The notes beneath the pieces were generated by a model. That model was not told the DNA's origin and did no database searches. It saw only the letters and a program-made list of their open reading frames with translations. Both the position numbers and the translations under genes were made by a program. This document shows, one piece after another, positions 44,401 to 64,000 of a stretch of DNA of 64,000 nucleotides. Source of the stretch: Squalus acanthias. Lineage: Eukaryota. The stretch lies in NCBI GenBank assembly GCA_030390025.1, contig CM059427.1:20088001-20152000 (forward strand), written 5' to 3'. Numbering within the stretch: position 1 is the stretch's first letter; each line of letters opens with the position of its first letter.

Positions 44401-47400
44401 GGAAACTTCCTATGTATTCTGTAATTACACCACCTTCTCTCTTTTTCATATCCCATTTCTCTCTCTTTCACTCAACCGCCTCTCTCTTAAACTTCTCCCT
44501 CTCTAACCTCTTCCATCTCAACCCATTTTCTCTCTTTCAATCCATCCCTCTCTGAACACCCTTCTCTCAATCGTTCTTTTCTCAAACCCTTCTCTCTCTC
44601 TTATACCTCTCTTAACCCAGCTTTCTCTGAACCCTAGTCTCTCTTAATACCCTTCTCTTTCTCTCTCTCACCCCCAAATTTGCGAGGTCAGTGGGAGGGC
44701 AACTTAATCTGCATGTGGCAGGCACGCACAACCACCAATCCGAGTGCATCTCTGGACCATGCCCTGCCCATGCCTCATGCAGCCGTGTCCCCTTTGGTGA
44801 GGTCCACTTCCACCCACCTGGATGCTGGTATACCTCACCTCATTGGCATAGTGGCCACCAGTACTACCCTGGGGCTAGAATGAGCTAGGAAAACAGGAAC
44901 TCCTGGCTCCACCCCCTGACAACATTTGTCTTATAAGAGTCTGGAAAATCCCAGAAATGGCAGAGGCTTGGTGCATCTGGATTTACAATGGAACCCCAAC
45001 AGATTTTTGGGGACAACTTTCTTTTTAGAAAAAAAGCATTCAATATTAATTTGATCTCAATTAAGCTTTTGAAATTTGCCCTCTTGTTATTCAAAATTAT
45101 TTGAAGGAAAGCTACTAAAAGTTGAAAAGCTGAAGAGAAATATCACATCAGTAGAGTTTAGTTAGATACACTCCATATGCTCAAACTGCATAATCCAAAT
45201 TCTGCTCAGAGTCACAGGTCTAGGCACAATTATCAATTCTAAGCCCAGGTTTTTGGGAGAGGCTGAGGCATTCAAGTGAAAACTATAATGAAGGCATTAA
45301 AAGATGCAAAAGACAATTCAGTGGCTAAATTCAACCATGTTATTGTGAAATATCTAATTTTTTATTTTTTTAAAGTTTTTGTAAACCCTAATTTTGGACA
45401 TTAGAAATTTTAGTTGCTGAAGAAAGAAGTGACTGCTGAAAAAAATTCAGAATACATTTTGAGAGAAGTGTGGGAATGCAGTGGCCAGATTACGTAATCA
45501 TTGACTAGTTTATATAGGCAAAACCCATTAGAAATGTAGATATCACAATATAATGGAAAAAGTTGACACAAAATGTGTGGGAAATACATGACAACTAGAA
45601 GTCAAGTGTTGCAGATAGGAAGTGTGCACACAGTTAAGTTTTTAATATATATTATGGATAGATATATGTCTGTAAATAGGTGATAAGGCAGTTATACTGA
45701 TCAAGCAGATAATGTGTGAAATGTAACCTCAATTAGACTCAATTTATTTTTGAACAAGATATTTTTGACGTAAACATTTTTGGAGCTAGATTTTGCTCTA
45801 TTTATGAAAAAAGACGCTCACATATTTGAATGAACATGAATTTCCTGATATTGTTCCAAGATGTCAATAGTATGATAGTTGTTAGTTATGTGATGAGTTG
45901 TCAAAGTGTAATTTTTCAGGGGACTTACAGAAGTATTTAATTAAGCTGTTTAAAAATAAGGTCAATTGGAAATCAATAACAGATAATGTGTTTTCTCCAT
46001 AATATATTTGTGATGACTTAGAGGTCATACTAGTTATCACTAGTTTTTTTTACCTTCAGTTGAGTGCACATAAAATCTTTTGGGTTTTTTCTCATTCAAT
46101 TCGGTACATTTTGATTTTATAGAGCCTCCAAACTTCATTAAGAAGCCAGATCATACAATATTATTGAAAAAAGGAAGTTCAACATGTCTTGAGTGTACAG
46201 TAACTGGCACACCTGAGATCAAAATTACCTGGTACAAGAAAGAAAGTGAAGTTCAGCCAAGTGACAAATTCAGGATGTCGTTTGTTGATTCTATATCAGT
46301 CCTTGAATTAATTGATGCCAGTGTGGAAGACAGTGGACATTACACTTGTAAAGCAGAGAATGAAGCTGGTTTTGACAATTGCAATGTTACAATTACAGTT
46401 AAAGGTGTGTAGCCAAAAAATGTAATAATGGAACCAATTTTGACAATTTGCTTTTTAAATGTTTTCCAGTTTGGTCAGTTTCTAAATTCTTTTGCTTTAC
46501 TTGCTTTTTTTTTAGAACCTCCTTCTTTTAGAAAGAAACTCAAACCTGTTGAGGTAATAAAAGGCAGTGATATCACTCTTGAATGTGAAATGGACGGTAC
46601 AAGCCCATTTGATGTCACTTGGTATAAGGACAATAAGCAGATTCGATCTAGTATAAAATACAAGATGATCTCTGGAAAATCTTTAGTTAGTCTTTTTATT
46701 CAAAAAGTCGATAATTCAGATGCTGGTGAATACCAATGCGAAGTAACAAATGATGTGGGAAGTTGTTCTTGCATTGCTGGAGTCAGATTAAAAGGTCAGT
46801 TATCAAATGCTGATCATTTTCTTCTTTGATATTTTCAATAATCCCATTTCGCAGTTCATTCTTACTTGGTTTTATTACTTTAGCATGAAGTGTCTGATCT
46901 TATATCTTGTATCTAATTCACACAACTCTTAACTCTTAACTTCAAATCAGAACCCCCTTCCTTTGTGAAAAAGATTGAAAACATTACAACATTATCTGGA
47001 GATCCAGCCACTTTTGACAGTCAAATAGAAGGCTCAGCTCCCATATGTGTTACATGGATGAAGGACAAAGATGAAATCAGAGAAGATGACCACATTAAAA
47101 TATCTTTTGAGAACAGTATTGCTGTACTGCAAATTGCTTCTGTTGAAGCAAATCACAGTGGAAAGTACACATGTCAGGCCAGGAATGATGCAGGAACTGA
47201 GAAGTGTTTTGCCACCTTGTTAGTAACAGGTTAGTATGAGACACTTGACATTTGTGAGTTTCAGTAAAGTGTCAAGTATGCAAACAATATTTCTTACTTC
47301 ATCGATTGAAGAAGTATGGTTTTTCTTGCAGAACCTGCACAAATCATTGAGAAGCCAGAGCCATTAAGTGTTACTTCAGGAGCCGCAGCAATTTTGGAAT

Positions 47401-50400
47401 GTTTTGTTGCTGGTACTCCAGAACTGAAAGTTAGATGGTTCAAGAATGAAGCTGAATTGACATCCAGCAGGAAATATAGAATGACTTTTCTCAATAAGGT
47501 GGCAATCCTAAAGGTTCTATCTGCTGGTAAAGATGATAGTGGGGAATATGCTTTTGAAGTCCAGAATGAATTTGGACACAGCAGCTGCACAACTTCATTG
47601 ACAGTACTAGGTTGGTGTTTTTTTAATGTGTTGAAACCTTTGATAGCACATCTCAAAAAAGAAGCTGAAAGGGAAGGGCCCCGTATAATTTTAACATACT
47701 TAGAATGAGAAAATTATATTTTAAATGTTCGGAAATCATATTTGTGTTTTCATGTCATCCTATTGTCTTCTAAATGTGTGCAATTGGTTATAGACAACTT
47801 CTTAGTAACAACTTCAGTTCCTTCTTGGTTGTGTAATAATTGTCTTCATGCCTTGAGCAGCTAGTGGAATATTACAGGGCCTTTAAGAAAAACATGCCAA
47901 AATTTTACGGGTGGATTTTAACTATTGGGTGGCCACTTGGTGGAGTGGGTGGGCCAGCCACCCAATTCTGCAGGCAGGAGGCCCAGTCCATGGTCCATTT
48001 TAAGTGCCAGGCCTCATTATCATGCCACCAGCGTGCTGCATTCCCCAAACAGGGGTCGTTCTGCAGCTTGCTGGCTTAGAGATAGCGCAATATTGGGTGG
48101 CCTGTCGGCTGACCCAACTGGCAGAAGGGTAGGTCCAGAGGAGAGGTTATAATTGCAGAGGTGGGGAACCCAGGGTGGCAGCATCCCACATTATTCTCGT
48201 GGAGCCCGGAGGAGCACCCCTGAGGCTCCTGGCCCTACAAAAATAATTTTTGCTCTTAGCTCTTTAGGCTTCATCTGCTGTACCACCAGGTGTTCCGGAG
48301 CAGAGCATGCACACCGCACCTCGTGCGTAGTAGCCCATAAAATTGCATCAGTGTCCTAAGTACATCATAAGGCCACAATTTGCATAATAAGGCACCTGCT
48401 TATTTCCGATGTGCACATCAGCCGCCCTGCAGAAGTTCATGGGAAAAATGGTAGTGGAGTGGGAACGGGGCGGGAAGTCCACCAACTTCATTTTAACTCC
48501 ATTACCACCCTGTTTCCGCTGGGCAGAGTGAGCTAAAATCTCTCCTTTGATATGTTAGCTGACAAGCTATCTTTGTTGTTCTGTGTTGGACAGATCGAGT
48601 AATTGCTCCATCCTTTACAAGAAGTTTAAAGAAAATGGATAACATATTGGGGACTTTGATGCACATGGAGTGCAAAGTATCTGGTTCTCTTCCAATCAGC
48701 ATTTCTTGGTATAAAGATAACAAAGAGATAATGACTAGTCACAAATACAAAATATCATTTGAAGAAAATACAGCATTTTTGGAGATTAAAGAACTTGAAA
48801 TCACAGATGGTGGAAATTACTCTTGCAAAGCAACAAATGCTGCTGGAATTAGTGAATGCAGTGGATTCTTAACAGTAAAAGGTTTGAAGATCACTTTACT
48901 CCAATCCACTTCTATTTTAAGACGCATCAAATGCTGATTTTCCAGTTGTAATATTTTCTGTTTCTTCTTTTCTGCAACAATAGAATATCTAGATAAATTG
49001 TACGTATTTCCACTTCCTAAAATATTTAAATTTGTTGTGATCAGTAGTAAAATGCTACAGTAATGTAACTATTTTCAGAAGTTTTATTTTTATTTTTACT
49101 TTATCTGACCTTACTAAACAACATTTTCTTAAATGACTTTTAGAACCACCAAACTTTATAGAAAAACCAATGTCCCAAGAGATTGTACTTGGATCTACAG
49201 TACAGTTTAAGAGTGTTGTGAAAGGAACTCTTCCACTGTTTGTCAAGTGGTTCAAAGATAATAGGGAACTGAATGCTGGTGCAAGACGTTCCATTTGGAA
49301 TGAAGAAACAACGCACTTCTTTGAGCTAATTTCAACTAAAGTTTCTGATGCTGGCGTTTACAGCTGCCAACTCAGCAATGAAGCTGGTTCAGTTACTAGT
49401 ACTGCAGAAGTATTCATCAAAGGTTTGCATTTCTTGTCAATCTTATTAGAAATTAAGTTTTGTGTAACATTTTTAACAGTGTGATATTTCTTCCTTAGTT
49501 TTCTTCAAACCAAAGATCAGTAACTTTTATCTGAGGGTGACTTTTAGTCTCTTGTCTACTAATCTATTGTTCATGTTTCCTAACTTTACTTTGTAATTCC
49601 AGTATTCAGGTTTATTGCATTTAATTTTCTCAGAACCTCCAAGTTTTGTTAAGAAGCCGTCTCCTTCAGCAGCACTGAAACAGGGAGAATTTGCACGTTT
49701 TGAGTGCAAAATAACTGGTACACCTGAAATCACAGTTACATGGTACAGAAATAACCATGATATTAGTACCAGTGACAAATGCAGGATATCGTTTCAAAAC
49801 TCATTGGCTGTTCTTGAGATTGCTGATGTAAGTGTGGAAGATAGTGGGGATTATTCCTGTGAAGCACAGAATGAAGCTGGTAGTAATAGCTGCAACTTTG
49901 TCATTCAGGTTAAAGGTGGGTAAAATAATATCTTAAAGACAGATTTCGCTTTTGGCATTTGATTGATTCCTAAGCCACATTGTTGTGTTTACTCTTTAGA
50001 ACCTCCCACATTTACAAAGAAACTTGAACCTGTTGAGGTAGTAAAAACCAGTGATTTCACTTTTGAATGTGAGGTGGTCGGTTCAGCTCCCTTTGAAGTT
50101 ATGTGGTATAAGGACAATAAACAAATTCGACGCAGCAAAAAATACAAAATGATCTTTGAGAATTCTTTAGCCAGTCTTTGCGTTCTAAAGTCTGATAGCT
50201 CAGAAGTTGGCGAATACAAGTGTACAGTAAAAAATGACGTGGGGAGTTGTTCCTGCAGTTCTACAGTCAGTTTGAAAGGTCAGTAGTAGTATGTTGCGAG
50301 ACCATATTTTTCTTCTGCCATTTATCGTGCCACTTTAGTTATCTTGTTATCCATTAGAGAATGCAGTGCTCAGCTATTTGTGGAAGCATTCTACTGTTTA

Positions 50401-53400
50401 AATTAAAGAATTTTAAAACCATACTAAAAAAACATTTGTTTTAAACTAGAACCCCCAGGATTTATAAAGAAGATTGAAAATATAACAACATTGTCAGGGA
50501 ATTCTATTGTATTCCAATGTCAAGTAAGAGGCTCAAAGCCTATTTATGTAACTTGGATGAAAGATAAAGATGATATCCAAGAAGATGGTAATATTACATT
50601 GTCTTTTGAGAATAATATTGCTACTCTTCAAATAAATGATGTTGGAGAAAATCATGCTGGGAAATATACGTGCCAGGTCAAGAATGATGCTGGAACTGAG
50701 AAGTGTTTTGGCACATTGTTGGTCGCAGGTCAGTAGGATATTGATTAGTTTAATAGTACCCTCCCCTCCAAAGTTTATGCTAATTACGAGTGAATTCAGA
50801 TTCCTTGTCATACATCAACTAAAATGAGAGTTATACCAGTAATATATTGAAGAGATTTTTTTTTCCTCGTAGAACCAGCAAAAATCACAGAACAAGCACA
50901 GTCACTCAGTGTGACCGCAGGAAATCCCGCAAACCTGGAATGTACTGTAACTGGTACACCAGAACTGAAAGTTAAATGTTTTAAGGATGGTAATGAAATG
51001 GTACCTAGCAGAAAACACAAAATCAACTTTGAGAATAATGTGTTCAGCCTAAAGATTCCTTCTGTTTCTAATGATGATACTGCTGAATATACTTTTGAGG
51101 TCAAGAATCAGTTTGGAACCAGCAGCTGTAAAGCTTCATTGACAGTATTAGGTTAGTGTTTTATTTGCATTTAGAATTTGACGAATTTAAATATCTAGTG
51201 TCATTTGCAAATTTTGTTTGCCCGTAAAGAAATCCTGATCACATTGACCAAAACCATATATAAAGGCTTTTATTGTTATAATGTTCTTTATGGAGACCAG
51301 TAACGATGGGAGTAGACAGATCAGCTGTGTTGGGAGTTTTAAAATAAGTTTTGTTTTGGATGGTCTCAGTAGGTATATCCTAATAAATATGAAAAATCTT
51401 ATTGTAAACAATCACAGTGGATTTGATTCATTTAAAGCACTTCCACATTTTTGCTGTTTGAGTTGATTGGCTGTGCTTTTGTCACTTTATCTTGGACAGA
51501 TCAACTAATTCCCCCATTGTTTACAAGAAAATTACGAAAAATGGACAGTGTTTTAGGATCTTTCATACATATGGAATGCAAAGTTTCTGGTTCTCTTCCA
51601 ATGAGCTTTTCATGGTATAAAGATTACAAAATAATAACAACTAGTGAAAAATACAAAGTGTTATGTCAAGATAACACACCAACTTTGGAAGTTAATCAAC
51701 TAGAGATTTCAGATCATGGAACTTATATTTGCAAAGCAACCAATTCAGTGGGAAGTGATGAATGCAGTGGTATCTTAAATATAACAGGTTTGAAAGATGA
51801 ACTTGCTTTGTTTCAGTTCCTAATATAGCTTTTGCATATATAAGCACTTGTTCAATTTCTGATTTTTGCTTGTTGCCCTAAAAAGATAAATATATTTAGT
51901 GTTTAAAATTTATTATGCAGTTTATAGTAAGTTCTCATTTTAGCTCTGCTCTGCCATTTTATTTTTGTTGACATCTTACCCAATGTAAACTAAGTACTAT
52001 AGGGATCCAATTCTATTATTTTTTTTCACCTGAATTTTAGAGCCACCAAGTTTTATAGAAAAACCTGTAGCCCAGGAAAGTCTACCTGGTTCCGCAGTGC
52101 AGTTTAGAAGTGTTGTGAAAGGAACTGCTCCACTATCTATAAAATGGCTGAAGGATGGCAGGGAACTGATGTCTGGAGCTGATTGTTTCATTTTAAATGA
52201 AGGTTCAACAAGTTTACTCGAGTTGTTTTCAGCTAAAGTTTCTGATTTGGGTGACTATACTTGTGAAGTCAGCAACAAGGTTGGAAGCGCCACTTGTACA
52301 ACAAGACTATTTATCAAAGGTGTGGAATTTAGGTTCACTTGTTAAACCATTGTGAAACACTGTTAAAAATTCAGACTTTTTCATTTTGAAAAGTTTACAT
52401 GTCTGTAAAGTTATTTTTCTTTGGTTTGTTATACACTTTTCTCTCGTTTGTTATTTTTAATGTTGCTATCGTGCTGTGTGTTATCTTCCTTTATATGTTG
52501 CATGTGTTTCATTGTTCCTTTTTATGTTGTATGGGTTTGTTTCAGACTTTTACATTTATAATTAAGTTTACTACATTTTTTTCTCTAGAACCTCCTTATT
52601 TTATTAAGAAGTTAGATCTTACAGCAATATTTAAAAAAGGAGAGACAGCAAGTTTTGAGTGCAAAGTAACTGGCACACCTGAAATCAAAATCACTTGGTT
52701 CAGCAACTATCGTGAAATTAGAGCCAGTGAAAAATACAGAATGTCATTTGTTGATTCAGTGGCAATATTTGAGATTGCTGACATAAACCTGGATGACAGT
52801 GGGAATTATTCCTGTAAAGCACAAAATGAAGCTGGCAGTGAATCTTGTGACATTAAAGTAACAGTTAAAGGTGTGTAAAAATTCCTAGTTACATTTTACA
52901 ACATAAGTTAACTGGTCTTTCTAAAAATGTTGCAAGTGCCTTGTGTTTAATTATGGACTATTTGGGAGCCTATTTTAAGTTTAACATCACTTTAACAGCC
53001 TGTTTTTACAGCTAGTTTTTCATTGGCCAATAAAAATTATCATTCAATTGCCACTAATTCCTTAGTTCAAACTGATGAATGAAATGTAATGTAAACATTT
53101 TACTAGAACATTTTAAATTCGACTCCAAAGGACCGATTTTAATTACCAGTGGGAAGCTGGCAGATGCAGACCGTGCAGGTGTCTTCATCGGAGGCTCCGG
53201 CAGATTTGAACTGCTAGGCCTCATTTGAATGCCAGCGTTCAGCTGCTCACCCGTTTTGAGTAGAATGTGGCAGCTGGCTAGTGGGGGAAGGTGAATATAT
53301 CTGCCCTGTAGCACTAGGAAATGGCAGAAAGTGGCAACAAGGTAAGTCTGGGAGTGAGACTTTCCAAGGGTCTCACTGCTGCTTAGGGGAGAAGCCCAGG

Positions 53401-56400
53401 GCATTGAGGCCCAGACATTCTTTGTAGGGCCAGGAGGAGCTCTCATGCTCCTCCTGGTCCCATTGTAGAAAGATGTTTAATTTGTCTTGAAGACCACGCT
53501 ATCTTCCCGACAACTTTACCTGGCGTGCAGCCGTGGCAGGCATCCCGCTCAGAAGGACATTAACGTGTCTTTTCCATCCCATGTGCATCATGGACCCCAA
53601 TTTTCATTTATTGGTGAGGTTCCTGCTGTTGTCCAATGGACATCTCAATCGCCGCCAAAACCAGTTGTGTTAAAATGGGGAATAGGCGGGAACAGAGTGA
53701 GAATTGGAGATGCTCCATTTTAACTGCTCCCTCTCTTCTTTCCTGCTGGTTGGGGAGATTTAAAGTTCCCCGTTTAATTCTTTCTAAATGCTAGAGTCAT
53801 GTGCAACTAGGCAAAATTATTAATGTTGAGGGCTGATAATGTCATTGAAAATTGTAGATATGTATAAAAAAAAATGAAGAGTATTTATTGGAGTATTTTA
53901 CTAATCTGCATTAAATAATAGCTGTAGGAGAAAACATCTGTGTGTTGGTTTGTCTCCCATGATTAGTTATCACACCTTAAAATAAGAATCACGTAAATAT
54001 TTTTTCATGTCAATGGTTATTGTTGGGAGTCACTGTGCAAAACCTGAATTTAGTGGCCTGTGATTTGTAAACCATGTTAATGTGTTTACTCTTTAGAACC
54101 TCCCACATTTACGAAGAAGCTTGAACCAGTTGAGGTAGTAAAAACCAGTGATTTCACTCTTGAATGTGAGGTGGCCGGTTCAGGTCCCTTTGAAGTTATG
54201 TGGTATAAGGACAATAAACAAATTCGACACAGTAAAAAATACAAAATGATCTCTGACATTTCTTTAGCCAGTCTTTGCGTTCTAAAGTCTGATAGCACAG
54301 ATGTTGGCGAATACAAGTGTTCAGTCAAAAATGATGTGGGGAGTTGTTCCTGCAGTTCTACAGTCAGTTTGAAAGGTCAGTTACAATCCAGTTCTAGTAA
54401 GTGGTTTCACCTGGATGTTGTGTGGTATCTGTTTCGATATCATGTTCTTATTAGGTATTATTGAAGTGTTGAAGCATAATATTTTTAATAATTGAACGTT
54501 GGTTGTATAATTGTAAATTATAACAGGGTATATTCTCTTTACTTTAAACTAGAACGACCAACCTTCGTACAAACAATAGAAAATGCAACAGTATTTTCTG
54601 GAAATTCTGCTGTATTTCAATGTCTTGTAAGAGGCTCAGTTCCTATAGCTACAAGCTGGAAAAAAGATGGCAAACATGTCAAAGAAGACGATAATGTAAA
54701 AATCTCCTTTGAAAACAATATTGCCACATTACAGATTATTAAGGCTGAAGAAAATCACAGTGGAAATTACATATGTCAGGCAAAGAATGATGCGGGAACT
54801 GCAAAATGCTTTGCTACATTGGCCATAATGGGTTAGTAGGAAGTAATAAGCACAAGTATTGTCCACAAATTATTGATCTATGTCTCATAATATTTACTTT
54901 TCCACAGTAAAATTATTTTAATGTTTTTAAATTAATTCTGTGATCATCAAGGTGAGGAATGTTATAATTGGCAGTGGGAACATTTTCCATGTCGAGCTGC
55001 CATTGTCAGGAACAAACAGTCAGTGTGCCACAGTTAAATGCAGGATATAGCTCCCTGTACTCTACCCCCAAAATATGCCTCTGGCAAATCCTCAGAAGAG
55101 CATTTCCTCTGTATCTGTGTGACATTTTTTCAATTTCCCCCAACATCTATTTTGTGAGGTCCCTGAATTAGATTGTTAACTTAATGCCCAGTTAGGGACG
55201 GTTTAGTGCCATTGGGAGCTGGATTGAGACTGCCCAAACTCATTTCACACGGAACACTTACAACAAGCATGCAGAAGAGACTTTGATTGCAGCAGTCTTG
55301 ACTGGATTTGAACTCAAGTCCATGAAGTATCAAACCCATTGTGCAGTCTGTTTCCCCCCAAATCTATTATCTTAAAATAGCAATCCGAGCATAAATATTG
55401 CATCGTTTTCCTGATGTAAATGATCTAATTTTTCCCACAGAACCTGCGAATATCATAGAAAAAACTGAGCCACTCACAGTGACTTCAGGAAACCCAGCCA
55501 TTTTGGAATGTACTGTAGCTGGTACACCAGAATTAAAAGTTGCATGGTTCAAAAGTGGAAACCAACTGGAATCAAGTAGAAAATATAAGATGAGTTTTGT
55601 GAATAAAGTGGCCAGTCTAAAAATTCTGGCTGTTGGAATGGATGACAGTGGTGACTATACTTTTAAGGTCCAGAATGAGTTTGGAGCCAACAGCTGCAAT
55701 GTTTCTTTGACAGTGTTAGGTCAGTGATTAATTTGTGTTGATGGCATCGATTTCATAAAGCATTTCTTTTAAAACCAAAGCTTATCACAAAGTTTAAAAT
55801 AATTGACACTTTTTTATTGATGTTTTGTGATTTTTTTCCCTTTATATTGGACAGAACAAATAATTGCTCCATTGTTTACAAGAAAACTAAAGGAAATGGG
55901 CAGTATTTTAGGATCTGTTGTACGAATGGAATGCAAAGTTTCTGGTTCTATTCCAATGACCGTTACTTGGTATAAAGCAGACAGTGAAATATCAGCTAGT
56001 AACAAATACAAGATGTCATTTCAAGACAACATGCTGTCTTTAGAGGTCAATGAGTTAGACTTTTCAGATGGTGGAATTTACACTTGCAAAGCAGCAAATT
56101 CAGCAGGAAAGGATGAATGCAGTGCTGTCTTAAGTGTAAAAGGTTTGAGACATTGCTTTGCTACATTTCTTTCTCATCAGTACTATAAGCAAATACTTAT
56201 TTTCTTCATTTATATTTTTTGTTTGCTACAATAGTGAAGTAACTAAATAAACCTTTCAACCATCTCTATCTTCTTTTTGTTAAGAGTTCTTAGATTTTTG
56301 AAGGATATGTTAGCATGTGTTAATCATAAAGTTGTCTTTAATCTGATCATGTCTTCCAGTTTGTACATACATCTGAGTTAATTAAATGCTTTTTTCTTGT

Positions 56401-59400
56401 GTGAATTTTAGAGCCCCCAAGCTTTACAGACAAAGTAATGTCCCAGGATGTTGTACTTGGTTCTACAGTGCAGTTTAAGAGTGTTGTGAAAGGAAGCACA
56501 CCACTCTCTACAAAATGGTTCAAAGGGGACAGGGAATTGATGCGTGGTGTGGCATATTCTATTTGGAATGAAGGCTCAACATATTTTCTAGAGCTGTTTT
56601 CAGCTAAAACATCTGATGCGGGTGCTTACACCTGCCAAGTCAGCAACGATGTTGGCACAGATGCCTGTTCTGCAGAATTGTTCGTTAAAGGTGTGCATTT
56701 CTGGATTTTTGCTGCAGTTCTCTTTTATATAAAACTGTTTTCCCTGCTTTGCTATCTTAAAAGTTTAGAAACATTAACTTGTTTTCTTGATGGTTGGTCA
56801 GCTCTAGTGGTAGAACGTTACACTGCCAACCATGGAGAGGGGCCAATGGTGGTCATCAGGCATTCAAATCTGGGCTGACAGTCAGACGCAATGTTGTTTA
56901 TTCGGAAACTCTACAGTTTTGCTATGAACTGCTAGGTGGAGCATCAGGTAATGGTGGGGAATTCTCTCTCAGTTCGAGGAAAACTGGCAAACCCAAGAGT
57001 CCTCACTGAAATTGATTTGCATCATCTAATCATAAAATGGCAGTGATGGCAACTTTGAGGACGTTCACAGTCTGGAATGCCCTACCGCCAATATTGAGGG
57101 AAGAACCATTTTGGTGGAGGCGGCAACCTGATGAAAACCATATGAAAAAAGAAATGCTGTTTGCTTTACCATACACAGAGCTCAGTTTGAGTATTAAACT
57201 ATGTTTTTTTTAAATTTGTAAATTTGGTCTGTAAATGTTTCGTAGCCAATTATTTATATCTAAATATTAGTTTGAATTGCTTTTGATGATCGTTTAAATT
57301 TATATTGAAATTTATAATATTTTGGCTTCTAGAACCTCCTAGCTTCATTAAAAAGCTACATTCTTCAACAATACTAAAGAAAGGAGATTCAGCACGTTTT
57401 GAGTGCACTGTAACTGGCACACCTGAAATTAAAGTTACTTGGTACAAAAACGGTCATGAAATTATAGCCAGTGGCAGATGTATGATGTCATTTGATGGTT
57501 CTGTGGCAATTCTTGAGATGATTGATGTTATTCTGGATGACAGTACATGCTACATCTGTGAGGCACGAAATGAAGCTGGCAGTGACAGCTGCAGCACTGA
57601 AGTTGGAGTTAAAGGTCTGTAGTAATGTCTTCTTTAGTCAGTAACAATATATATATGTTAGTTTCTTGAACAGGGATACTATTAGTTCCTGTATTGTGGT
57701 TGATTTGGATTTCTTTATTCTGATTACTTTATAGAACCTCCCAGTTTTAGAAGGAAACTTCAATCTGCTGAAATAGTTACAACCAGTGATTTCACTCTTG
57801 AATGTGAGGTGGCTGGTACAGGGCCCTTTGAAGTTATGTGGTATAAGGACAATAAACAAATTCGACGCAGCAAAAAATACAAAATGATCTCTGACATTTC
57901 TTTAGCCAGTCTTTGCGTTCTAAAGTCTGATAGCACAGATGTTGGCGAATACAAGTGTTCAGTAAAAAATGAAGTGGGGAGTTGTTCCTGCAGTTCTACA
58001 GTCGGTTTGAAAGGTCAGTTGTAGTATGTTGTCAGATATATTTTCCTTCCGGTGTTTATAGTGCCATTTGAGTTATCTTGTTATCCATTAGAAAATTCAA
58101 TGCTAAGCTATTTGTGGAAGCATTCTACATTTTACATTAAAGCATTTTTAGAACCATAATGAAAAACAGCAAAATATATCCACATATTCATATTACCATT
58201 TGTTTTAAACTAGAACCCCCAGGATTTATAAAGAAGATTGAAAATATAACAACATTGTCAGGGAATTCTATTGTATTCCAATGTCAAGTAAGAGGCTCAA
58301 AGCCTATTTATGTAACTTGGATGAAAGATAAAGATGATATCCAAGAAGATGGTAATATTACACTGTCTTTTGAGAATAATATTGCTACTCTTCAAATAAA
58401 TGATGTTGGAGAAAATCATGCTGGGAAATATACGTGCCAGGTCAAGAATGATGCTGGAACTGAGAAGTGTTTTGGCACATTGTTGGTCGCAGGTCAGTAG
58501 GATATTGATTAGTTTAATAGTACCCTCCCCTCCAAAGTTTATGCTAATTACGAGTGAATTCAGATTCCTTGTCATACATCAACTAAAATGAGACTTATAC
58601 CAGTAATATATTGAAGAGATTTTTTTTTCCTCGTAGAACCAGCAAAAATCACAGAACAAGCACAGTCACTCATTGTGACCGCAGGAAATCCCGCAAACCT
58701 GGAATGTACTGTAACTGGTACACCAGAACTGAAAGTTAAATGTTTTAAGGATGGTAATGAAATGGTACCTAGCAGAAAACACAAAATCAACTTTGAGAAT
58801 AATGTGTTCAGCCTAAAGATTCCTTCTGTTTCTAATGATGATACTGCTGAATATACTTTTGAGGTCAAGAATCAGTTTGGAACCAGCAGCTGTAAAGCTT
58901 CATTGACAGTATTAGGTTAGTGTTTTATTTGCATTTAGAATTTGACGAATTTAAATATCTAGTGTCATTTGAAAAAAAAATTTGCCCATAAAGAAATCCT
59001 GATCACATTGACCAAAACCATATATAAAGGCTTTTATTGTTATAATGTTCTTTATGGAGACCAGTAACGATGGGAGTAGACAGATCAGCTGTGTTGGGAG
59101 TTTTAAAATAAGTTCTGTTTTGGATGGTCTCAGTAGGTATATCCTAATAAATATGAAAAATCTTATTGTAAACAATCACAGTGGATTTGATTCATTTAAA
59201 GCACTTCCACATTTTTGCTGTTTGAGTTGATTGGCTGTGCTTTTGTCACTTTATCTTGGACAGATCAACTAATTCCCCCATTGTTTACAAGAAAATTACG
59301 AAAAATGGACAGTGTTTTAGGATCTTTCATACATATGGAATGCAAAGTTTCTGGTTCTCTTCCAATGAGCTTTTCATGGTATAAAGATTACAAAATAATA

Positions 59401-62400
59401 ACAACTAGTGAAAAATACAAAGTGTTATGTCAAGATAACACACCAACTTTGGAAGTTAATCAACTAGAGATTTCAGATCATGGAACTTATATTTGCAAAG
59501 CAACCAATTCAGTGGGAAGTGATGAATGCAGTGGTATCTTAAATATAACAGGTTTGAAAGATGAACTTGCTTTGTTTCAGTTCCTAATATAGCTTTTGCA
59601 TATATAAGCACTTGTTCAATTTCTGATTTTTGCTTGTTGCCCTAAAAAGATAAATATATTTAGTGTTTAAAATTTATTATGCAGTTTATAGTAAGTTCTC
59701 ATTTTAGCTCTGCTCTGCCATTTTATTTTTGTTGACATTTTACCCAATGTAAACTAAGTACTATAGGGATCCAATTCTATTATTTTTTTCACCTGAATTT
59801 TAGAGCCACCAAGTTTTATAGAAAAACCTGTAGCCCAGGAAAGTCTACCTGGTTCCGCAGTGCAGTTTAGAAGTGTTGTGAAAGGAACTGCTCCACTATC
59901 TATAAAATGGCTGAAGGATGGCAGGGAACTGATGTCTGGAGCTGATTGTTTCATTTTAAATGAAGGTTCAACAAGTTTACTCGAGTTGTTTTCAGCTAAA
60001 GTTTCTGATTTGGGTGACTATACTTGTGAAGTCAGCAACAAGGTTGGAAGCGCCACTTGTACAACAAGACTATTTATCAAAGGTGTGGAATTTAGGTTCA
60101 CTTGTTAAACCATTGTGAAACACTGTTAAAAAATTCAGACTTTTTCATTTTGAAAAGTTTACATGTCTGTAAAGTTATTTTTCTTTGGTTTGTTATACAC
60201 TTTTCTCTCGTTTGTTATTTTTAATGTTGCTATCGTGCTGTGTGTTATCTTCCTTTATATGTTGCATGTGTTTCATTGTTCCTTTTTATGTTGTATGGGT
60301 TTGTTTCAGACTTTTACATTTATAATTAAGTTTACTACATTTTTTTCTCTAGAACCTCCTTATTTTATTAAGAAGTTAGATCTTACAGCAATATTTAAAA
60401 AAGGAGAGACAGCAAGTTTTGAGTGCAAAGTAACTGGCACACCTGAAATCAAAATCACTTGGTTCAGCAACTATCGTGAAATTAGAGCCAGTGAAAAATA
60501 CAGAATGTCATTTGTTGATTCAGTGGCAATATTTGAGATTGCTGACATAAGCCTGGATGACAGTGGGAATTATTCCTGTAAAGCACAAAATGAAGCTGGC
60601 AGTGAATCTTGTGACATTAAAGTAACAGTTAAAGGTGTGTAAAAATTCCTAGTTACATTTTACAACATAAGTTAACTGGTCTTTCTAAAAATGTTGCAAG
60701 TGCCTTGTGTTTAATTATGGACTATTTGGGAGCCTATTTTAAGTTTAACATCACTTTAACAGCCTGTTTTTATAGCTAGTTTTTCATTGGCCAATAAAAA
60801 TTATCATTCAATTGCCACTAGCTCCTTAGTTCAAACTGATGAATGAAATGTAATGTAAACATTTTACTAGAACATTTTAAATTCGACTCCAAAGGACCGA
60901 TTTTAATTACCAGTGGGAAGCTGGCAGATGCAGACCGTGCAGGTGTCTTCATCGGAGGCTCCGGCAGATTTGAACTGCTAGGCCTCATTTGAATGCCAGC
61001 GTTCAGCTGCTCACCCGTTTTGAGTAGAATGTGGCAGCTGGCTAGTGGGGGAAGGTGAATATATCTGCCCTGTAGCACCAGGAAATGGCAGAAAGTGGCA
61101 ACAAGGTAAGTCTGGGAGTGGGACTTTCCAAGGGTCTCACTGCTGCTTAGGGGAGAAGCCCAGGGCATTGAGGCCCAGACATTCTATGTAGGGCCAGGAG
61201 GAGCTCTCATGCTCCTCCTGGTCCCATTGTAGAAAGATGTTTAATTTGTCTTGAAGACCACGCTATCTTCCCGACAACTTTACCTGGCGTGCAGCCGTGG
61301 CAGGCATCCCGCTCAGAAGGACATTAACGTGTCTTTTCCATCCCATGTGCATCATGGACCCCAATTTTCATTTATTGGTGAGGTTCCTGCTGTTGTCCAA
61401 TGGACATCTCAATCGCCGCCAAAACCAGTTGTGTTAAAATGGGGAATAAGCGGGAACAGAGTGAGAATTGGAGATGCTCCATTTTAACTGCTCCCTCTCT
61501 TCTTTCCTGCTGGTTGGGGAGATTTAAAGTTCCCCGTTTAATTCTTTCTAAATGCTAGAGTCATGTGCAACTAGGCAAAATTATTAATGTTGAGGGCTGA
61601 TAATGTCATTGAAAATTGTAGATATGTATAAAAAAAATGAAGAGTATTTATTGGAGTATTTTACTAATCTGCATTAAATAATAGCTGTAGCAGAAAACAT
61701 CTGTGTGTTGGTTTGTCTCCCATGATTAGTTATCACACCTTAAAATAAGAATCACGTAAATATTTTTTCATGTCAATGCTTATTGTTGGGAGTCACTGTG
61801 CAAAACCTGAATTTAGTGGCCTGTGATTTGTAAACCATGTTAATGTGTTTACTCTTTAGAACCTCCCACATTTACGAAGAAGCTTGAACCAGTTGAGGTA
61901 GTAAAAACCAGTGATTTCACTCTTGAATGTGAGGTGGCCGGTTCAGGTCCCTTTGAAGTTATGTGGTATAAGGACAATAAACAAATTCGACACAGTAAAA
62001 AATACAAAATGATCTCTGACATTTCTTTAGCCAGTCTTTGCGTTCTAAAGTCTGATAGCACAGATGTTGGTGAATACAAGTGTTCAGTCAAAAATGATGT
62101 GGGGAGTTGTTCCTGCAGTTCTACAGTCAGTTTGAAAGGTCAGTTACAATCCAGTTCTAGTAAGTGGTTTCACCTGGATGTTGTGTGGTATCTGTTTCGA
62201 TATCATGTTCTTATTAGGTATTATTGAAGTGTTGAAGCATAATATTTTTAATAATTGAACATTGGTTGTATAATTGTAAATTATAACAGGGTATATTCTC
62301 TTTACTTTAAACTAGAACGACCAACCTTCGTACAAACAATAGAAAATGCAACAGTATTTTCTGGAAATTCTGCTGTATTTCAATGTCTTGTAAGAGGCTC

Positions 62401-63905
62401 AGTTCCTATAGCTACAAGCTGGAAAAAAGATGGCAAACATGTCAAAGAAGACGATAATGTAAAAATCTCCTTTGAAAACAATATTGCCACATTACAGATT
62501 ATTAAGGCTGAAGAAAATCACAGTGGAAATTACATATGTCAGGCAAAGAATGATGCGGGAACTGCAAAATGCTTTGCTACATTGGCCATAATGGGTTAGT
62601 AGGAAGTAATAAGCACAAGTATTGTCCACAAATTATTGATCTATGTCTCATAATATTTACTTTTCCACAGTAATATTATTTTAATGTTTTTAAATTAATT
62701 CTGTGATCATCAAGGTGAGGAATGTAATAGTTCGCAGTGGGAACATTTTCCATGTCGAGCTGCCATTGTCAGGAACAAACAGTCAGTGTGCCACAGTTAA
62801 ATGCAGGATATAGCTCCCTGTACTCTATCCCCAAAATATGCCTCTGGCAAATCCTCAGAAGAGCATTTCCTCTGTATCTGTGTGACATTTTTTCAATTTC
62901 CCCCAACATCTATTTTGTGAGGTCCCTGAATTAGATTGTTAACTTAATGCCCAGTTAGGGACGGTTTAGTGCCATTGGGAGCTGGATTGAGACTGCCCAA
63001 ACTCATTTCACACGGAACACTTACAACAAGCATGCAGAAGAGACTTTGATTGCAGCAGTCTTGACTGGATTTGAACTCAAGTCCATGAGGTATCAAACCC
63101 ATTGTGCAGTCTGTTTCCCCCCAAATCTATTATCTTAAAATAGCAATCCGAGCATAAATATTGCATCGTTTTCCTGATGTAAATGATCTAATTTTTCCCA
63201 CAGAACCTGCGAATATCATAGAAAAAACTGAGCCACTCACAGTGACTTCAGGAAACCCAGCCATTTTGGAATGTACTGTAGCTGGTACACCAGAATTAAA
63301 AGTTGCATGGTTCAAAAGTGGAAAGCAACTGGAATCAAGTAGAAAATATAAGATGAGTTTTGTGAATAAAGTGGCCAGTCTAAAAATTCTGGCTGTTGGA
63401 ATGGATGACAGTGGTGACTATACTTTTAAGGTCCAGAATGAGTTTGGAGCCAACAGCTGCAATGTTTCTTTGACAGTGTTAGGTCAGTGATTAATTTGTG
63501 TTGATGGCATCGATTTCATAAAGCATTTCTTTTAAAACCAAAGCTTATCACAAAGTTTAAAATAATTGACACTTTTTTATTGATGTTTTGTGATTTTTTT
63601 CCCTTTATATTGGACAGAACAAATAATTGCTCCATTGTTTACAAGAAAACTAAAGGAAATGGGCAGTATTTTAGGATCTGTTGTACGAATGGAATGCAAA
63701 GTTTCTGGTTCTATTCCAATGACCGTTACTTGGTATAAAGCAGACAGTGAAATATCAGCTAGTAACAAATACAAGATGTCATTTCAAGACAACATGCTGT
63801 CTTTAGAGGTCAATGAGTTAGACTTTTCAGATGGTGGAATTTACACTTGCAAAGCAGCAAATTCAGCAGGAAAGGATGAATGCAGTGCTGTCTTAAGTGT
63901 AAAAG
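1575..63905 (+). CDS. TTN: Titin/connectin, partial multi-exon gene (I-band: Novex-2 to tandem-Ig region); extends beyond both window edges
   Basis: About 50 phase-1 exons encoding I-set Ig domains (PP.F...W.K....D.G.Y.C.A.N..G), plus recognisable Novex-2, Novex-3 and N2B peptides in the human TTN order. Confidence 0.97.
2759..3274 (+). CDS. TTN: TTN additional exon: K/T/S/P-rich linker plus 1 Ig
   Basis: ttgcatag|CT acceptor, G|gttggc donor, 516 nt, open and phase 1-1, complete I-set Ig (PAFLERLP...HTGTYTCKAVNSAG). Confidence 0.8.
3713..3769 (+). CDS. TTN: TTN 57-nt exon (human exon 47 homologue)
   Basis: ttcattcag|CC ... G|gtaaca; encodes VEKKIQDKIEQQIEMEVR, like the human IEQEIEMEMK preceding Novex-3/N2B. 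Confidence 0.9.
5049..10898 (+). CDS. TTN: TTN Novex-3 part 1 (Ig, expanded unique/repeat region, Ig)
   Basis: T-rich tract+gcag|AG; ELFF..RDAFSD..SSWSENFRPSFTEKL..AINSEGSAESTASLLV matches the Novex-3 start; donor G|gtaaga. Confidence 0.92.
7655..10143 (+). repeat. Coding tandem repeat: 4 copies of a 621-bp (207-aa) unit; copy 2 is 606 bp
   Basis: AKDFTSILRPS starts at 7691, 8312, 8918 and 9539 (spacing 621/606/621); copies nearly identical in DNA. Confidence 0.97.
11011..14531 (+). CDS. TTN: TTN Novex-3 part 2, terminal exon (4 Ig, stop TAA)
   Basis: cattttccag|AG phase 1; ITSMEVEEVTF, ALPPPVTHQHVIEFD and PSPQEILLEVEL are Novex-3 hallmarks; in-frame stop at 14529-14531. Confidence 0.92.
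11889..12127 (+). repeat. Degenerate coding repeat, 3 x ~26 aa
   Basis: SVTSTADELSSK / SVTSFSDQFLSN / SVTSFVDEFSSK at 78-nt spacing. Confidence 0.75.
14569..14574 (+). terminator. Polyadenylation signal of the Novex-3 isoform
   Basis: AATAAA 38 nt after the stop, followed by a GT/T-rich downstream element near 14585-14600. Confidence 0.7.
17098..18775 (+). mobile_element. 5'-truncated CR1-clade LINE (ORF2 reverse transcriptase plus 3' UTR and microsatellite tail), inactive
   Basis: Motifs KSPGPD..HPRVLKE, LDFQKAFDKVPH, GVPQGSVLGP, KFADDTKLG; tail ttctatgt repeats; YRPVS missing after KAGN; frameshift near 18380. Confidence 0.95.
21335..21672 (-). mobile_element. Degraded SINE-like relic
   Basis: GC-richer island resembling the 35265-35668 element (actcagcataaat / actcagcacaaat), tRNA-like end on the minus strand. 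Confidence 0.35.
22580..26856 (+). CDS. TTN: TTN cardiac N2B exon (2 Ig, unique sequence, Ig); 1-nt frameshift at ~24120-24156 as assembled
   Basis: ttatgcag|AA; EFSSS, YKFVYDRDEYSLII, PPHFFKELK, AARIQEGQSVRFPL and HQGEYVCEALN match human N2B; donor G|gttgga; length 4277 is not a multiple of 3. Confidence 0.92.
27267..27346. repeat. Perfect 19-bp minisatellite, about 4.2 copies
   Basis: (cttaatgctatgtttaaaa)x4 + ctta. Confidence 0.95.
27889..28167 (+). CDS. TTN: TTN exon 50 homologue (1 Ig)
   Basis: ctgtag|TG..G|gtaagt, 279 nt; PAFKRKIESLEV..VRFQWF..DCGEYTCRASN. Confidence 0.92.
28481..29257. mobile_element. Non-autonomous DNA transposon (MITE-like)
   Basis: Imperfect TIRs ggcctcagaatttgcggt / actgcaatttctgggcc, AAT on both flanks (3-bp TSD), GC arms around an AT core. 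Confidence 0.7.
29726..30289 (+). CDS. TTN: TTN exon 51 homologue (2 Ig)
   Basis: ttgtag|AA..G|gtaagg, 564 nt; TTFVGK..DKPYF..HLECQVDED. Confidence 0.92.
30388..31209. mobile_element. MITE-like element
   Basis: Perfect 12-bp TIR gggctggatttt / aaaatccagccc; no ORF of note. Confidence 0.7.
31899..32631 (+). mobile_element. MITE-like element (same family as 43436-44126, opposite orientation)
   Basis: TIR ggcccgtattttccgatc / gatcaggaaatacgggcc; internal palindrome gatctgtcaaga..tcttgacagatc; strand is arbitrary. Confidence 0.75.
33114..33395 (+). CDS. TTN: TTN Ig exon, super-repeat 1 position A
   Basis: AG/GT, 282 nt, phase 1, I-set Ig. Confidence 0.9.
33524..33802 (+). CDS. TTN: TTN Ig exon SR1-B
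   Basis: AG/GT, 279 nt, I-set Ig. Confidence 0.9.
33942..34220 (+). CDS. TTN: TTN Ig exon SR1-C
   Basis: AG/GT, 279 nt, I-set Ig. Confidence 0.9.
34331..34609 (+). CDS. TTN: TTN Ig exon SR1-D
   Basis: AG/GT, 279 nt, EPA.I.EK start. Confidence 0.9.
34725..35012 (+). CDS. TTN: TTN Ig exon SR1-E
   Basis: ttggacag acceptor, 288 nt, DR.IAP linker. Confidence 0.9.
35265..35668 (-). mobile_element. Degraded tRNA-derived SINE-like element
   Basis: Minus strand begins gggctcccctgatggctcag (A-box-like) with ggttcaatt (B-box-like) downstream. Confidence 0.45.
35879..36157 (+). CDS. TTN: TTN Ig exon SR1-F
   Basis: AG/GT, 279 nt, PGSTVKF..GTPP. Confidence 0.9.
36363..36644 (+). CDS. TTN: TTN Ig exon SR2-A
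   Basis: AG/GT, 282 nt, I-set Ig. Confidence 0.9.
36779..37057 (+). CDS. TTN: TTN Ig exon SR2-B
   Basis: AG/GT, 279 nt. Confidence 0.9.
37189..37467 (+). CDS. TTN: TTN Ig exon SR2-C
   Basis: AG/GT, 279 nt. Confidence 0.9.
37634..38362. mobile_element. MITE-like element
   Basis: Imperfect TIR ggggctagaaattgctgg / ccagcaatttctgaacc. Confidence 0.6.
38679..39072. mobile_element. Tc1/mariner-pogo type MITE
   Basis: Perfect 24-bp TIR caggaaactttcgtttatccggca, TA duplication on both sides. Confidence 0.88.
39227..39505 (+). CDS. TTN: TTN Ig exon SR2-D
   Basis: AG/GT, 279 nt. Confidence 0.9.
39616..39903 (+). CDS. TTN: TTN Ig exon SR2-E
   Basis: AG/GT, 288 nt. Confidence 0.9.
40166..40444 (+). 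CDS. TTN: TTN Ig exon SR2-F
   Basis: AG/GT, 279 nt. Confidence 0.9.
41231..41562. mobile_element. Older relative of the 38679 pogo-type MITE
   Basis: TA|caagaaactc..ggcacc / ggtgccggatactaaagagtttcctg|TA; shared internal ttgttaaaaatagcctcggtagata. Confidence 0.8.
41949..42307 (-). mobile_element. CR1 LINE 3' fragment
   Basis: Minus-strand MFPLVGESRTRGHNLRIRG..NFFSQRVVNFWNSLP matches the ORF2 C-terminus at 18435; (acataaga)n tail. Confidence 0.92.
43436..44126 (-). mobile_element. MITE-like element, inverted relative of 31899-32631
   Basis: Reverse complement matches 31899-32631 along both arms (e.g. ggtttcaggcatg..gcgcatgcgctgaaa); ggccc-type termini. Confidence 0.75.
44432..44672. repeat. 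Low-complexity CT-rich tract
   Basis: Degenerate ctctct/accc repeats, almost no G. Confidence 0.7.
46123..46404 (+). CDS. TTN: TTN Ig exon SR3-A
   Basis: AG/GT, 282 nt. Confidence 0.9.
46516..46794 (+). CDS. TTN: TTN Ig exon SR3-B
   Basis: AG/GT, 279 nt. Confidence 0.9.
46951..47229 (+). CDS. TTN: TTN Ig exon SR3-C
   Basis: AG/GT, 279 nt. Confidence 0.9.
47332..47610 (+). CDS. TTN: TTN Ig exon SR3-D
   Basis: AG/GT, 279 nt. Confidence 0.9.
47909..48545. mobile_element. Degraded MITE-like element
   Basis: gggtggattttaact / agctaaaatctctcc termini; GC-rich island in an AT-rich intron. Confidence 0.55.
48594..48881 (+). CDS. TTN: TTN Ig exon SR3-E
   Basis: AG/GT, 288 nt. Confidence 0.9.
49144..49422 (+). 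CDS. TTN: TTN Ig exon SR3-F
   Basis: AG/GT, 279 nt. Confidence 0.9.
49634..49915 (+). CDS. TTN: TTN Ig exon SR4-A
   Basis: AG/GT, 282 nt. Confidence 0.9.
50000..50278 (+). CDS. TTN: TTN Ig exon SR4-B
   Basis: AG/GT, 279 nt. Confidence 0.9.
50450..50728 (+). CDS. TTN: TTN Ig exon SR4-C
   Basis: AG/GT, 279 nt. Confidence 0.9.
50873..51151 (+). CDS. TTN: TTN Ig exon SR4-D
   Basis: AG/GT, 279 nt; core Trp replaced by Cys (VKCFKD). Confidence 0.88.
51500..51787 (+). CDS. TTN: TTN Ig exon SR4-E
   Basis: AG/GT, 288 nt. Confidence 0.9.
52041..52319 (+). CDS. TTN: TTN Ig exon SR4-F
   Basis: AG/GT, 279 nt. Confidence 0.9.
52589..52870 (+). CDS. TTN: TTN Ig exon SR5-A
   Basis: AG/GT, 282 nt. Confidence 0.9.
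53130..53771. mobile_element. Degraded MITE-like element (duplicated at ~60893-61535)
   Basis: ggaccgattttaa / tttaaagttcccc termini; GC-rich island resembling the 47909 element. Confidence 0.5.
54097..54375 (+). CDS. TTN: TTN Ig exon SR5-B
   Basis: AG/GT, 279 nt. Confidence 0.9.
54553..54831 (+). CDS. TTN: TTN Ig exon SR5-C
   Basis: AG/GT, 279 nt. Confidence 0.9.
55441..55719 (+). CDS. TTN: TTN Ig exon SR5-D
   Basis: AG/GT, 279 nt. Confidence 0.9.
55855..56142 (+). CDS. TTN: TTN Ig exon SR5-E
   Basis: AG/GT, 288 nt. Confidence 0.9.
56412..56690 (+). CDS. TTN: TTN Ig exon SR5-F
   Basis: AG/GT, 279 nt. Confidence 0.9.
57333..57614 (+). CDS. TTN: TTN Ig exon SR6-A
   Basis: AG/GT, 282 nt. 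Confidence 0.9.
57735..58013 (+). CDS. TTN: TTN Ig exon SR6-B (chimeric)
   Basis: AG/GT, 279 nt, in frame (EPPSFRRKLQSAEIVTTSDFTLECEV...). Confidence 0.88.
58214..58492 (+). CDS. TTN: TTN Ig exon SR6-C (duplicate of SR4-C)
   Basis: AG/GT, 279 nt. Confidence 0.88.
58637..58915 (+). CDS. TTN: TTN Ig exon SR6-D (duplicate of SR4-D)
   Basis: AG/GT, 279 nt. Confidence 0.88.
59264..59551 (+). CDS. TTN: TTN Ig exon SR6-E (duplicate of SR4-E)
   Basis: AG/GT, 288 nt. Confidence 0.88.
59804..60082 (+). CDS. TTN: TTN Ig exon SR6-F (duplicate of SR4-F)
   Basis: AG/GT, 279 nt. Confidence 0.88.
60353..60634 (+). CDS. TTN: TTN Ig exon SR7-A (duplicate of SR5-A)
   Basis: AG/GT, 282 nt. Confidence 0.88.
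61860..62138 (+). CDS. TTN: TTN Ig exon SR7-B (duplicate of SR5-B)
   Basis: AG/GT, 279 nt. Confidence 0.88.
62316..62594 (+). CDS. TTN: TTN Ig exon SR7-C (duplicate of SR5-C)
   Basis: AG/GT, 279 nt. Confidence 0.88.
63204..63482 (+). CDS. TTN: TTN Ig exon SR7-D (duplicate of SR5-D)
   Basis: AG/GT, 279 nt. Confidence 0.88.
63618..63905 (+). CDS. TTN: TTN Ig exon SR7-E (duplicate of SR5-E)
   Basis: AG/GT, 288 nt. Confidence 0.88.
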
Positions 63906-64000
63906 GTTTGAGACATTGCTTTGCTACATTTCTTTCTCATCAGTACTATAAGCAAATACTTATTTTCTTCATTTATATTTTTTGTTTGCTACAATAGTGA

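Follow-up and report, generated by a model that had tools for sequence, protein, structure and literature searches.

An in-frame block of 12 immunoglobulin exons present three times in a shark titin gene assembly: a probably old, homogenised pair and an extra copy that is either a recent allele or an assembly error

The titin locus and its exon array

The DNA studied here (the window) is a stretch of 64,000 nucleotides from Squalus acanthias (assembly GCA_030390025.1, contig CM059427.1, positions 20,088,001 to 20,152,000). By its domains and closest matches, it is assigned to the I-band part of the shark titin gene in a 3.7-Gb genome, and it contains most of a tandem array in which a block of 12 immunoglobulin (Ig) exons is repeated. 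Positions beyond 64,000 continue the window numbering into 100 kb of downstream DNA. The closest named proteins are titin pieces of sawshark and sevengill shark (87-100% identity). At the level of domains, identity amounts to 67-85% with elephant-shark titin and to 87-100% with sawshark titin.

In the exon model, three Ig exons are followed by 60 array exons, one 10-Ig repeat and two Ig domains, giving a middle-Ig total of 75 domains, or 63 if the extra copy described below (copy B) is removed. Three matches of the model are without boundaries, all outside the array. The array extends from 33,114 to 76,070 and is composed of ten super-repeats of six Ig domains (SR1-SR10), with one domain per phase-1 exon. 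All 60 array exons are open and flanked by AG and GT, and their sizes of 279, 282 and 288 bp are distributed over ten A-F sets. Domain identity is 63% at lag 6 and 31% at lag 1, i.e., a period of six positions, and neighbouring Ig domains are 21-44% identical (41 pairs). On the evidence of this period, the flanking domains and titin orthology in trees, the segment is classed with the 6-Ig super-repeats of the titin middle-Ig region.

SR1-SR3 and exon SR4A (33,114-49,915, + strand) are single-copy and 63-77% identical to other super-repeats. In the trees, orthologues from elephant shark and Mobula match this segment one-to-one; trees A and B also retain off-target upstream domains of elephant shark (labelled SR4A and SR3B) as long branches. 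Exon identity between other pairs of super-repeats of the same gene is 63-80%, excepting the B exons of SR4-SR9; compared with this, the likeness of the block copies described below is much greater than chance would give.

Three copies of a 12-exon block

An initial annotation of the window described exons, introns and a transposable element recurring at +7763/+7764 and interpreted the unit as tandem Ig titin sequence of 12 domains, that is, two 6-Ig super-repeats and 1,124 amino acids, with the possibility of more copies to follow. Self-comparison confirms the recurrence of exons, introns and intronic repeats alike, and the exon model and the codon sum agree with the proposed identity and size. 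The differences reported between copies were also recovered, namely, in the A exon, N/S at residue 66 (NLDD/SLDD); in one D exon, N/K at residue 40 (GNQL/GKQL); in the other, S/I at residue 12; and, in addition, 1-bp homopolymer indels. The repeat was placed slightly too far upstream, at 50,046: near-identity starts from 50,433, and the exon at 50,000-50,278 is just 91% identical to its partner.

The block is present three times, as copies A and B and a further copy C beyond the window end, so that the expectation of more copies was justified. The unit spans exons SR4C to SR6B, and its 12 exons together contain exactly 1,124 codons. Copy A occupies 50,433-58,196 (+ strand; 7,764 bp, 1,124 aa). 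Copy B, the extra copy, starts at 58,197, reaches the window end at 64,000 and continues to 65,959 (+ strand; 7,763 bp, from a three-way alignment). Copy C lies wholly outside the window, from 65,960 to about 73,970, where homology stops inside exon SR10B; it came to light through a search of the animal's own genome, which gave another 100% match at +7,763 past the window end. It is without a 15-bp and a 156-bp intron piece and carries an 824-bp old dispersed repeat. All three copies are in frame with intact splice sites. They thus form in-frame, near-identical tandem multi-exon blocks of the type known from the human TTN segmental duplication and the NEB triplicate region.

The relationship between the copies is uneven. 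A and B differ at 33 positions within 50,433-55,562 (5,130 bp, 0.64%) and at none thereafter. At 24 of these positions B equals C, and the other nine variants are private to B. In the self-comparison, a letter-for-letter identity of 4,176 bp joins 55,563-59,738 (+ strand) to 63,326-67,501. The three-way alignment shows that copy B is C-type up to 59,115 and mostly A-type from 60,662. The switch interval, 59,116-60,661 (+ strand), corresponds to the longest substitution-free tract between A and C (51,352-52,897, 1,547 bp) and would be the site of a recent crossover or of a mis-join.

Age and probable homogenisation of the A/C pair

Between copies A and C, 11 of 3,093 exon sites (0.36%) and 134 of 4,009 intron sites (3.3%) are different. 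Divergence varies strongly from part to part, being 0-1.1% in 11 exons and 0-9.3% in introns. Several short introns are identical (0%), and the two longest differ by 4.7% and 9.3%. The former, a long repeat-bearing intron at 52,871-54,096 (+ strand), also contains indels, and its depth is raised by other loci; it appears to have escaped homogenisation. The latter, at 56,691-57,332 (+ strand), shows 60 events in 56,891-57,320, and its A/B-type tail provides a copy-number marker. The 824-bp insertion found only in C is a dispersed repeat, 67-88% like the members of its family (62 matches; 40 scored out of 7,282 candidates).

Exon SR6B (57,735-58,013, + strand; repeated at 65,498) is chimeric and, from its diagnostic columns, marks an old duplication junction. 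Its first ~40 nt are SR10B-like and the remainder is SR4B/SR5B-like. Contigs joining 58,190 to the block start at 50,433 were found in all four runs X1, X3, X5 and X6, organism B included. The junction at ~57.78 kb is therefore not recent; it is taken to be the original junction, old and common to other species. Consequently, the initial description of a very recent duplication would apply only to the extra copy B and not to this junction. The check proposed for it, reads spanning 57.78 kb, does not discriminate, since it would be positive in any two-copy animal; contigs across the junction occur in all of those four runs.

Two copies are also indicated in relatives. In organisms B, C and D, which diverge by 1.8-3.2% from this genome, the block is collapsed in the assembly, forming long contigs whose depth is ~2x that of single-copy or copy-specific pieces (26.5 versus 16.1-16.3 in X6, 10.2 versus 5.0 in X7 and 24.9 versus 12.1-15.3 in X9), and copy-specific tails were seen in organisms C and D. 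The sawshark model holds six domains twice. Five compared pairs are 99-100% alike, and the sixth, with a truncated B domain, scored 77%. These sawshark domains are 91-100% identical to those of this genome, and the pairs share 0-7 sawshark-only residues per domain. Two consecutive devil-ray models (XP_062908156.1 and XP_062908157.1) carry two D-E-F-A sets ending in the unit's A-type domain, 69-87% alike (five pairs; in one, the partners come from two Mobula species). In the trees, SR1-3, SR5F and SR10 each find a one-to-one partner among the elephant-shark pieces. In 14 titin pieces from elephant shark and other vertebrates, internal domain identity reaches at most 73%.

A duplication predating the splits, likeness within species and mosaic identity are the marks of concerted evolution, and all of them can be recognised in these comparisons. 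Very probably, then, A and C are an old pair kept near-identical by gene conversion, which looks young because it is homogenised. One elasmobranch duplication of SR4-SR5 would have raised an ancestral six super-repeats to eight; the ancestral number fits the one-to-one pairing of the elephant-shark pieces. Gene conversion would then have kept A and C alike in this shark lineage, while the copies drifted in rays.

Some points limit the case for a single old duplication. The sawshark and ray evidence comes from fragmentary automatic gene models, and the order in sawshark can be explained by a unit of six Ig domains just as well as by one of 12 in which six exons are skipped. Moreover, the branches grouping by species mostly have support under 95. 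Given such fragmentary models and low tree support, separate duplications in different lineages are possible.

Three further features of the domains were observed. The B exons of SR4, SR5 and SR6 (50,000-50,278, 54,097-54,375 and 57,735-58,013), spaced six domains apart, are 91-94% identical, with neighbours at 67-77%, and the closeness of SR4B and SR5B recurs in the B domains of sawshark and ray; conversion is likely to act in 6-Ig register as well, at the B-exon position alone. In the D domain of SR4, SR6 and SR8 (window 50,873-51,151), C replaces the core W in all copies, likewise in sawshark, sevengill shark and ray. The A domain of SR6, SR8 and SR10 (window 57,333-57,614) has the D-x-G-x-Y motif without its G, again in all copies.

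Copy number in other individuals

Seven of 23 runs were compared (X1, X3, X5, X6, X7, X9 and X16). They include contigs of two further samples, S1 and S2, labelled organism A; X1 and X3 come from the same sample. In X1, depth is 28.1 in shared sequence, 12.9 in the flank, 15.1 for A-type and 14.0 for C-type sequence. Since A-type and C-type depth add up to the shared depth, X1 corresponds to one A and one C; with three copies, A-type would be twice C-type. In X5, the shared depth is 29.6 and the A-type tail has 14.1, next to flank values of 13.5 over 852 bp and of 22.8 over 508 bp of an intron rich in repeats. X3 is at odds with X1: its flank has 14.3, shared sequence 18.4 and the A-type tail 9.5. 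At 53,568-53,880, A-type is ~2.6 times C-type in X3, which alone favours two A-type copies, and the ratio in X1 there is 16:13. X3 was not used for deciding copy number. X16 (organism G) is 5-6.5% diverged and offers no clear single-copy baseline.

Contig depth does not support three copies throughout the species in S1 and S2, and copy B is probably not species-wide. Of the nine variants private to B, at least three (52,019, 52,787 and 55,562 in A numbering) are alleles in other fish, two of them also in other species. Because at least three of its private variants occur as alleles elsewhere, copy B looks like the sequence of another haplotype. Such coherent alleles also mean that it is not polishing noise. 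Across the junction and tail, which are unique sequence, 2-3 of 355 sites in X1 and X5 do not match the assembly.

Two local peculiarities of the contigs were noted. The interval 45,924-47,619 has almost no cover in X1, X3 and X5, possibly through a filter. Joints between 47,576 and 51,123 and between 50,990 and 47,537 probably reflect the piecewise alignment of a paralogous D exon rather than rearrangements.

Origin of copy B

The explanation favoured here combines the old homogenised A/C pair with a copy B that arose recently by unequal crossover and is carried by few animals; taken as a whole, it is given an even chance. Whether copy B is a rare copy-number allele is, on its own, just as finely balanced. 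The A copy on one homologue would have misaligned with the C copy on the other, and a crossover inside their 1.5-kb substitution-free tract would have produced the order A, C-head/A-tail, C, in frame. If spliced in, the gain of 12 Ig domains (75 instead of 63 in the middle-Ig segment) would result in a longer and softer skeletal-muscle spring. A real copy B is favoured by the state of the assembly. There is no gap at the array, no N in 604 kb and no other head-to-tail duplication of >2 kb at >=96% identity in these 604 kb (0 others among 12 matches). Nor does the rest of the genome assembly contain a haplotig of the region (19 of 19 matches on the array's own contig, C3). It is also favoured by the position of the switch within the longest identity tract and by the recurrent copy-number change of the comparable human TTN and NEB blocks, as given in the available part of PMC9142044.

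Other findings tell against a real extra copy. The contig depth of X1 and X5 fits two copies and not three, and contigs of no sampled animal support three, X3 at 53,568-53,880 excepted; depth is flat per contig, though, and a poor measure of copy number. Furthermore, the private variants of B that were checked are ordinary alleles, and a perfect repeat of 4,176 bp lies beside a block that differs by 0.6%. Both would be expected if the arm of an assembly bubble had been placed in tandem. Such an artefact, with a real old A/C pair and an animal having two copies per chromosome, is judged only a little short of an even chance. The similarity of A and C creates a loop, through which the version of a heterozygous 3.6-kb block from the second haplotype would have been led in tandem. 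The two other individuals and three relatives would then all fit two copies, and the eight super-repeats left without B would equal the whale-shark count in the accessible text of PMC12241362. The alleles seen elsewhere at 52,019, 52,787 and 55,562 fit as well, and so does the fact that the 4,176 identical bases span the very junction and tail where X1 and X5 depart from the assembly. Against an artefact stand the continuity of the array, the lack of similar tandem duplicates and the missing haplotig, although gaps or nearby duplicates do not accompany every false duplication. A crossover between homologues predicts every sequence feature equally.

Two other explanations carry little weight. 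Three copies might be fixed in the population of the assembly, or in a cryptic species, with S1 and S2 from another lineage. These samples hold just 0.81-0.84 of the sampled words and differ where all three assembly copies agree (e.g., at 52,034), but one X1 contig is just ~0.2% from the assembly (5/2,466), and the B variants checked are common to the S1 and S2 samples and not new. This makes a separate lineage very unlikely. Still less credible is an origin of the whole repeat in a single duplication of very recent date, with ~57.78 kb as the breakpoint. The mere 0.64% between A and B over 5.1 kb, followed by no difference over the next 2.6 kb, would suit it, yet it is rejected on account of the junction in organism B, the 5-9% divergence of the long A/C introns and the two copies in relatives, sawshark and rays.

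Returning to unequal crossover from an old pair, a polymorphic spring length is possible, with odds similar to those of a false duplication. The broader proposal of a live length polymorphism of the titin tandem Ig segment in sharks, arising from a duplication older than the shark-ray split, kept alike by conversion and with alleles differing by 1,124 amino acids, is held tentatively, the balance leaning somewhat against it.

Other repeats and annotation at the locus

Several other repeats occur in and around the window. At 6,750-10,560 lies a series of about five tandem units with 80-94% DNA identity, each roughly 200-210 aa in length and made up of two alternating halves of ~100 aa. They sit inside an open frame of 1,973 codons (5,018-10,936), a giant titin exon that we take to be Novex-3-like by its position, and form a second young-looking coding repeat in the titin gene. 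In the PEVK region, a K/E/P/V-rich coding repeat of 150 bp (50 aa) is present in about 4.6 copies of 90-93% identity at 148,267-148,960. A head-to-tail pair of 1,039 bp (98% identity) without a long open frame is located at 118,787-120,864, between the N2A-side and the distal Ig exons.

Dispersed elements were also detected. A 1.7-kb element at window 17,098-18,775 contains an open frame of 454 codons and has a 97% identical copy 324 kb downstream and a 93% identical inverted copy at 82,075-83,758; it likely belongs to a young transposable-element family. Another element of 2.0 kb, likely a recently active transposon, occurs three times at 99.2% identity, once inverted, in the stretch between 160 and 137 kb upstream of the window. 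For several sharks and rays, public annotations place small 'titin-like' or misnamed models over the 12-Ig block, which hints at a more general difficulty in assembling or annotating the region.

Implications

The growth of the titin spring may run from an old pair of exon blocks kept near-identical by conversion and hence prone to unequal crossover, rather than through isolated events. If copy B is real, natural shark alleles would differ by 12 folded Ig domains (75 versus 63), which would allow a direct test of the effect of tandem-Ig length on passive muscle stiffness. A folded Ig domain is about 4 nm long. Once spliced in, a real copy B would lengthen the folded Ig chain by ~50 nm. Body muscle would be mainly concerned, because the heart of the elephant shark splices out most of the middle-Ig segment, according to the available text of PMC12241362. 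If copy B is false, the reference overcounts the super-repeats, and near-identity is no proof of youth when titin expansions are dated.

Comparison with known systems

The closest precedent is the work on connectin/titin of cartilaginous fish, whose available text gives three super-repeats for human and zebrafish, six for elephant shark and eight for whale shark (Hanashima et al. 2025, PMC12241362). The same gene segment is concerned, with one Ig domain per exon and growth by six-domain blocks. The present array differs from it in having ten super-repeats, a 12-Ig unit and a chimeric junction exon. Transposons are proposed there as triggers, whereas here intronic repeats mark the failure of homogenisation. 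The available text of that paper describes neither near-identical copies nor gene conversion nor copy-number change ('gene conversion' and 'concerted evolution' occur 0 times), and the text of PMC12198301, as far as accessible, contains no report of such titin homogenisation or of this copy-number state. Neither titin homogenisation in sharks nor a ten-repeat state was found in print, the searched literature being without most subscription journals. Block-wise growth of the segment in sharks is already published; what the present analysis adds is a third copy and a depth test that speaks against it.

The size of the unit may matter for folding. Identical neighbouring domains form longer-lasting misfolds, as described in the accessible part of PMC4660218. 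A block of 12 Ig domains avoids identical neighbours, since adjacent domains are only 21-44% alike.

The behaviour of the pair recalls other systems as well. Concerted evolution by non-allelic gene conversion is known in tandem gene pairs and in rDNA. As in those cases, paralogues within a species are more alike than orthologues, and mosaic tracts are broken at indels. Unlike the usual situation, the process would act on exon blocks inside one gene, where adjacent Ig domains keep their low identity. Haplotypic false duplication, for its part, occurs in diploid assemblies. It likewise yields an extra copy with allele-like differences beside an identical run; here, it would have done so without a gap or a haplotig.

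Finally, giant muscle genes of human offer a parallel. The NEB triplicate region comprises eight exons present three times. In the human TTN segmental duplication (exons 172-198 and 203-204), nine PEVK exons are present three times, and both regions undergo recurrent copy-number gains and losses, as stated in the available part of PMC9142044. The age of the PEVK block is put at about 1-3 million years in the available text of PMC12241362. In contrast to that block, the shark block consists of folded tandem Ig domains, appears far older, likely owes its young look to conversion and may vary in copy number. Like the human TTN and NEB regions, it is a near-identical multi-exon tandem block in a giant sarcomeric ruler protein.

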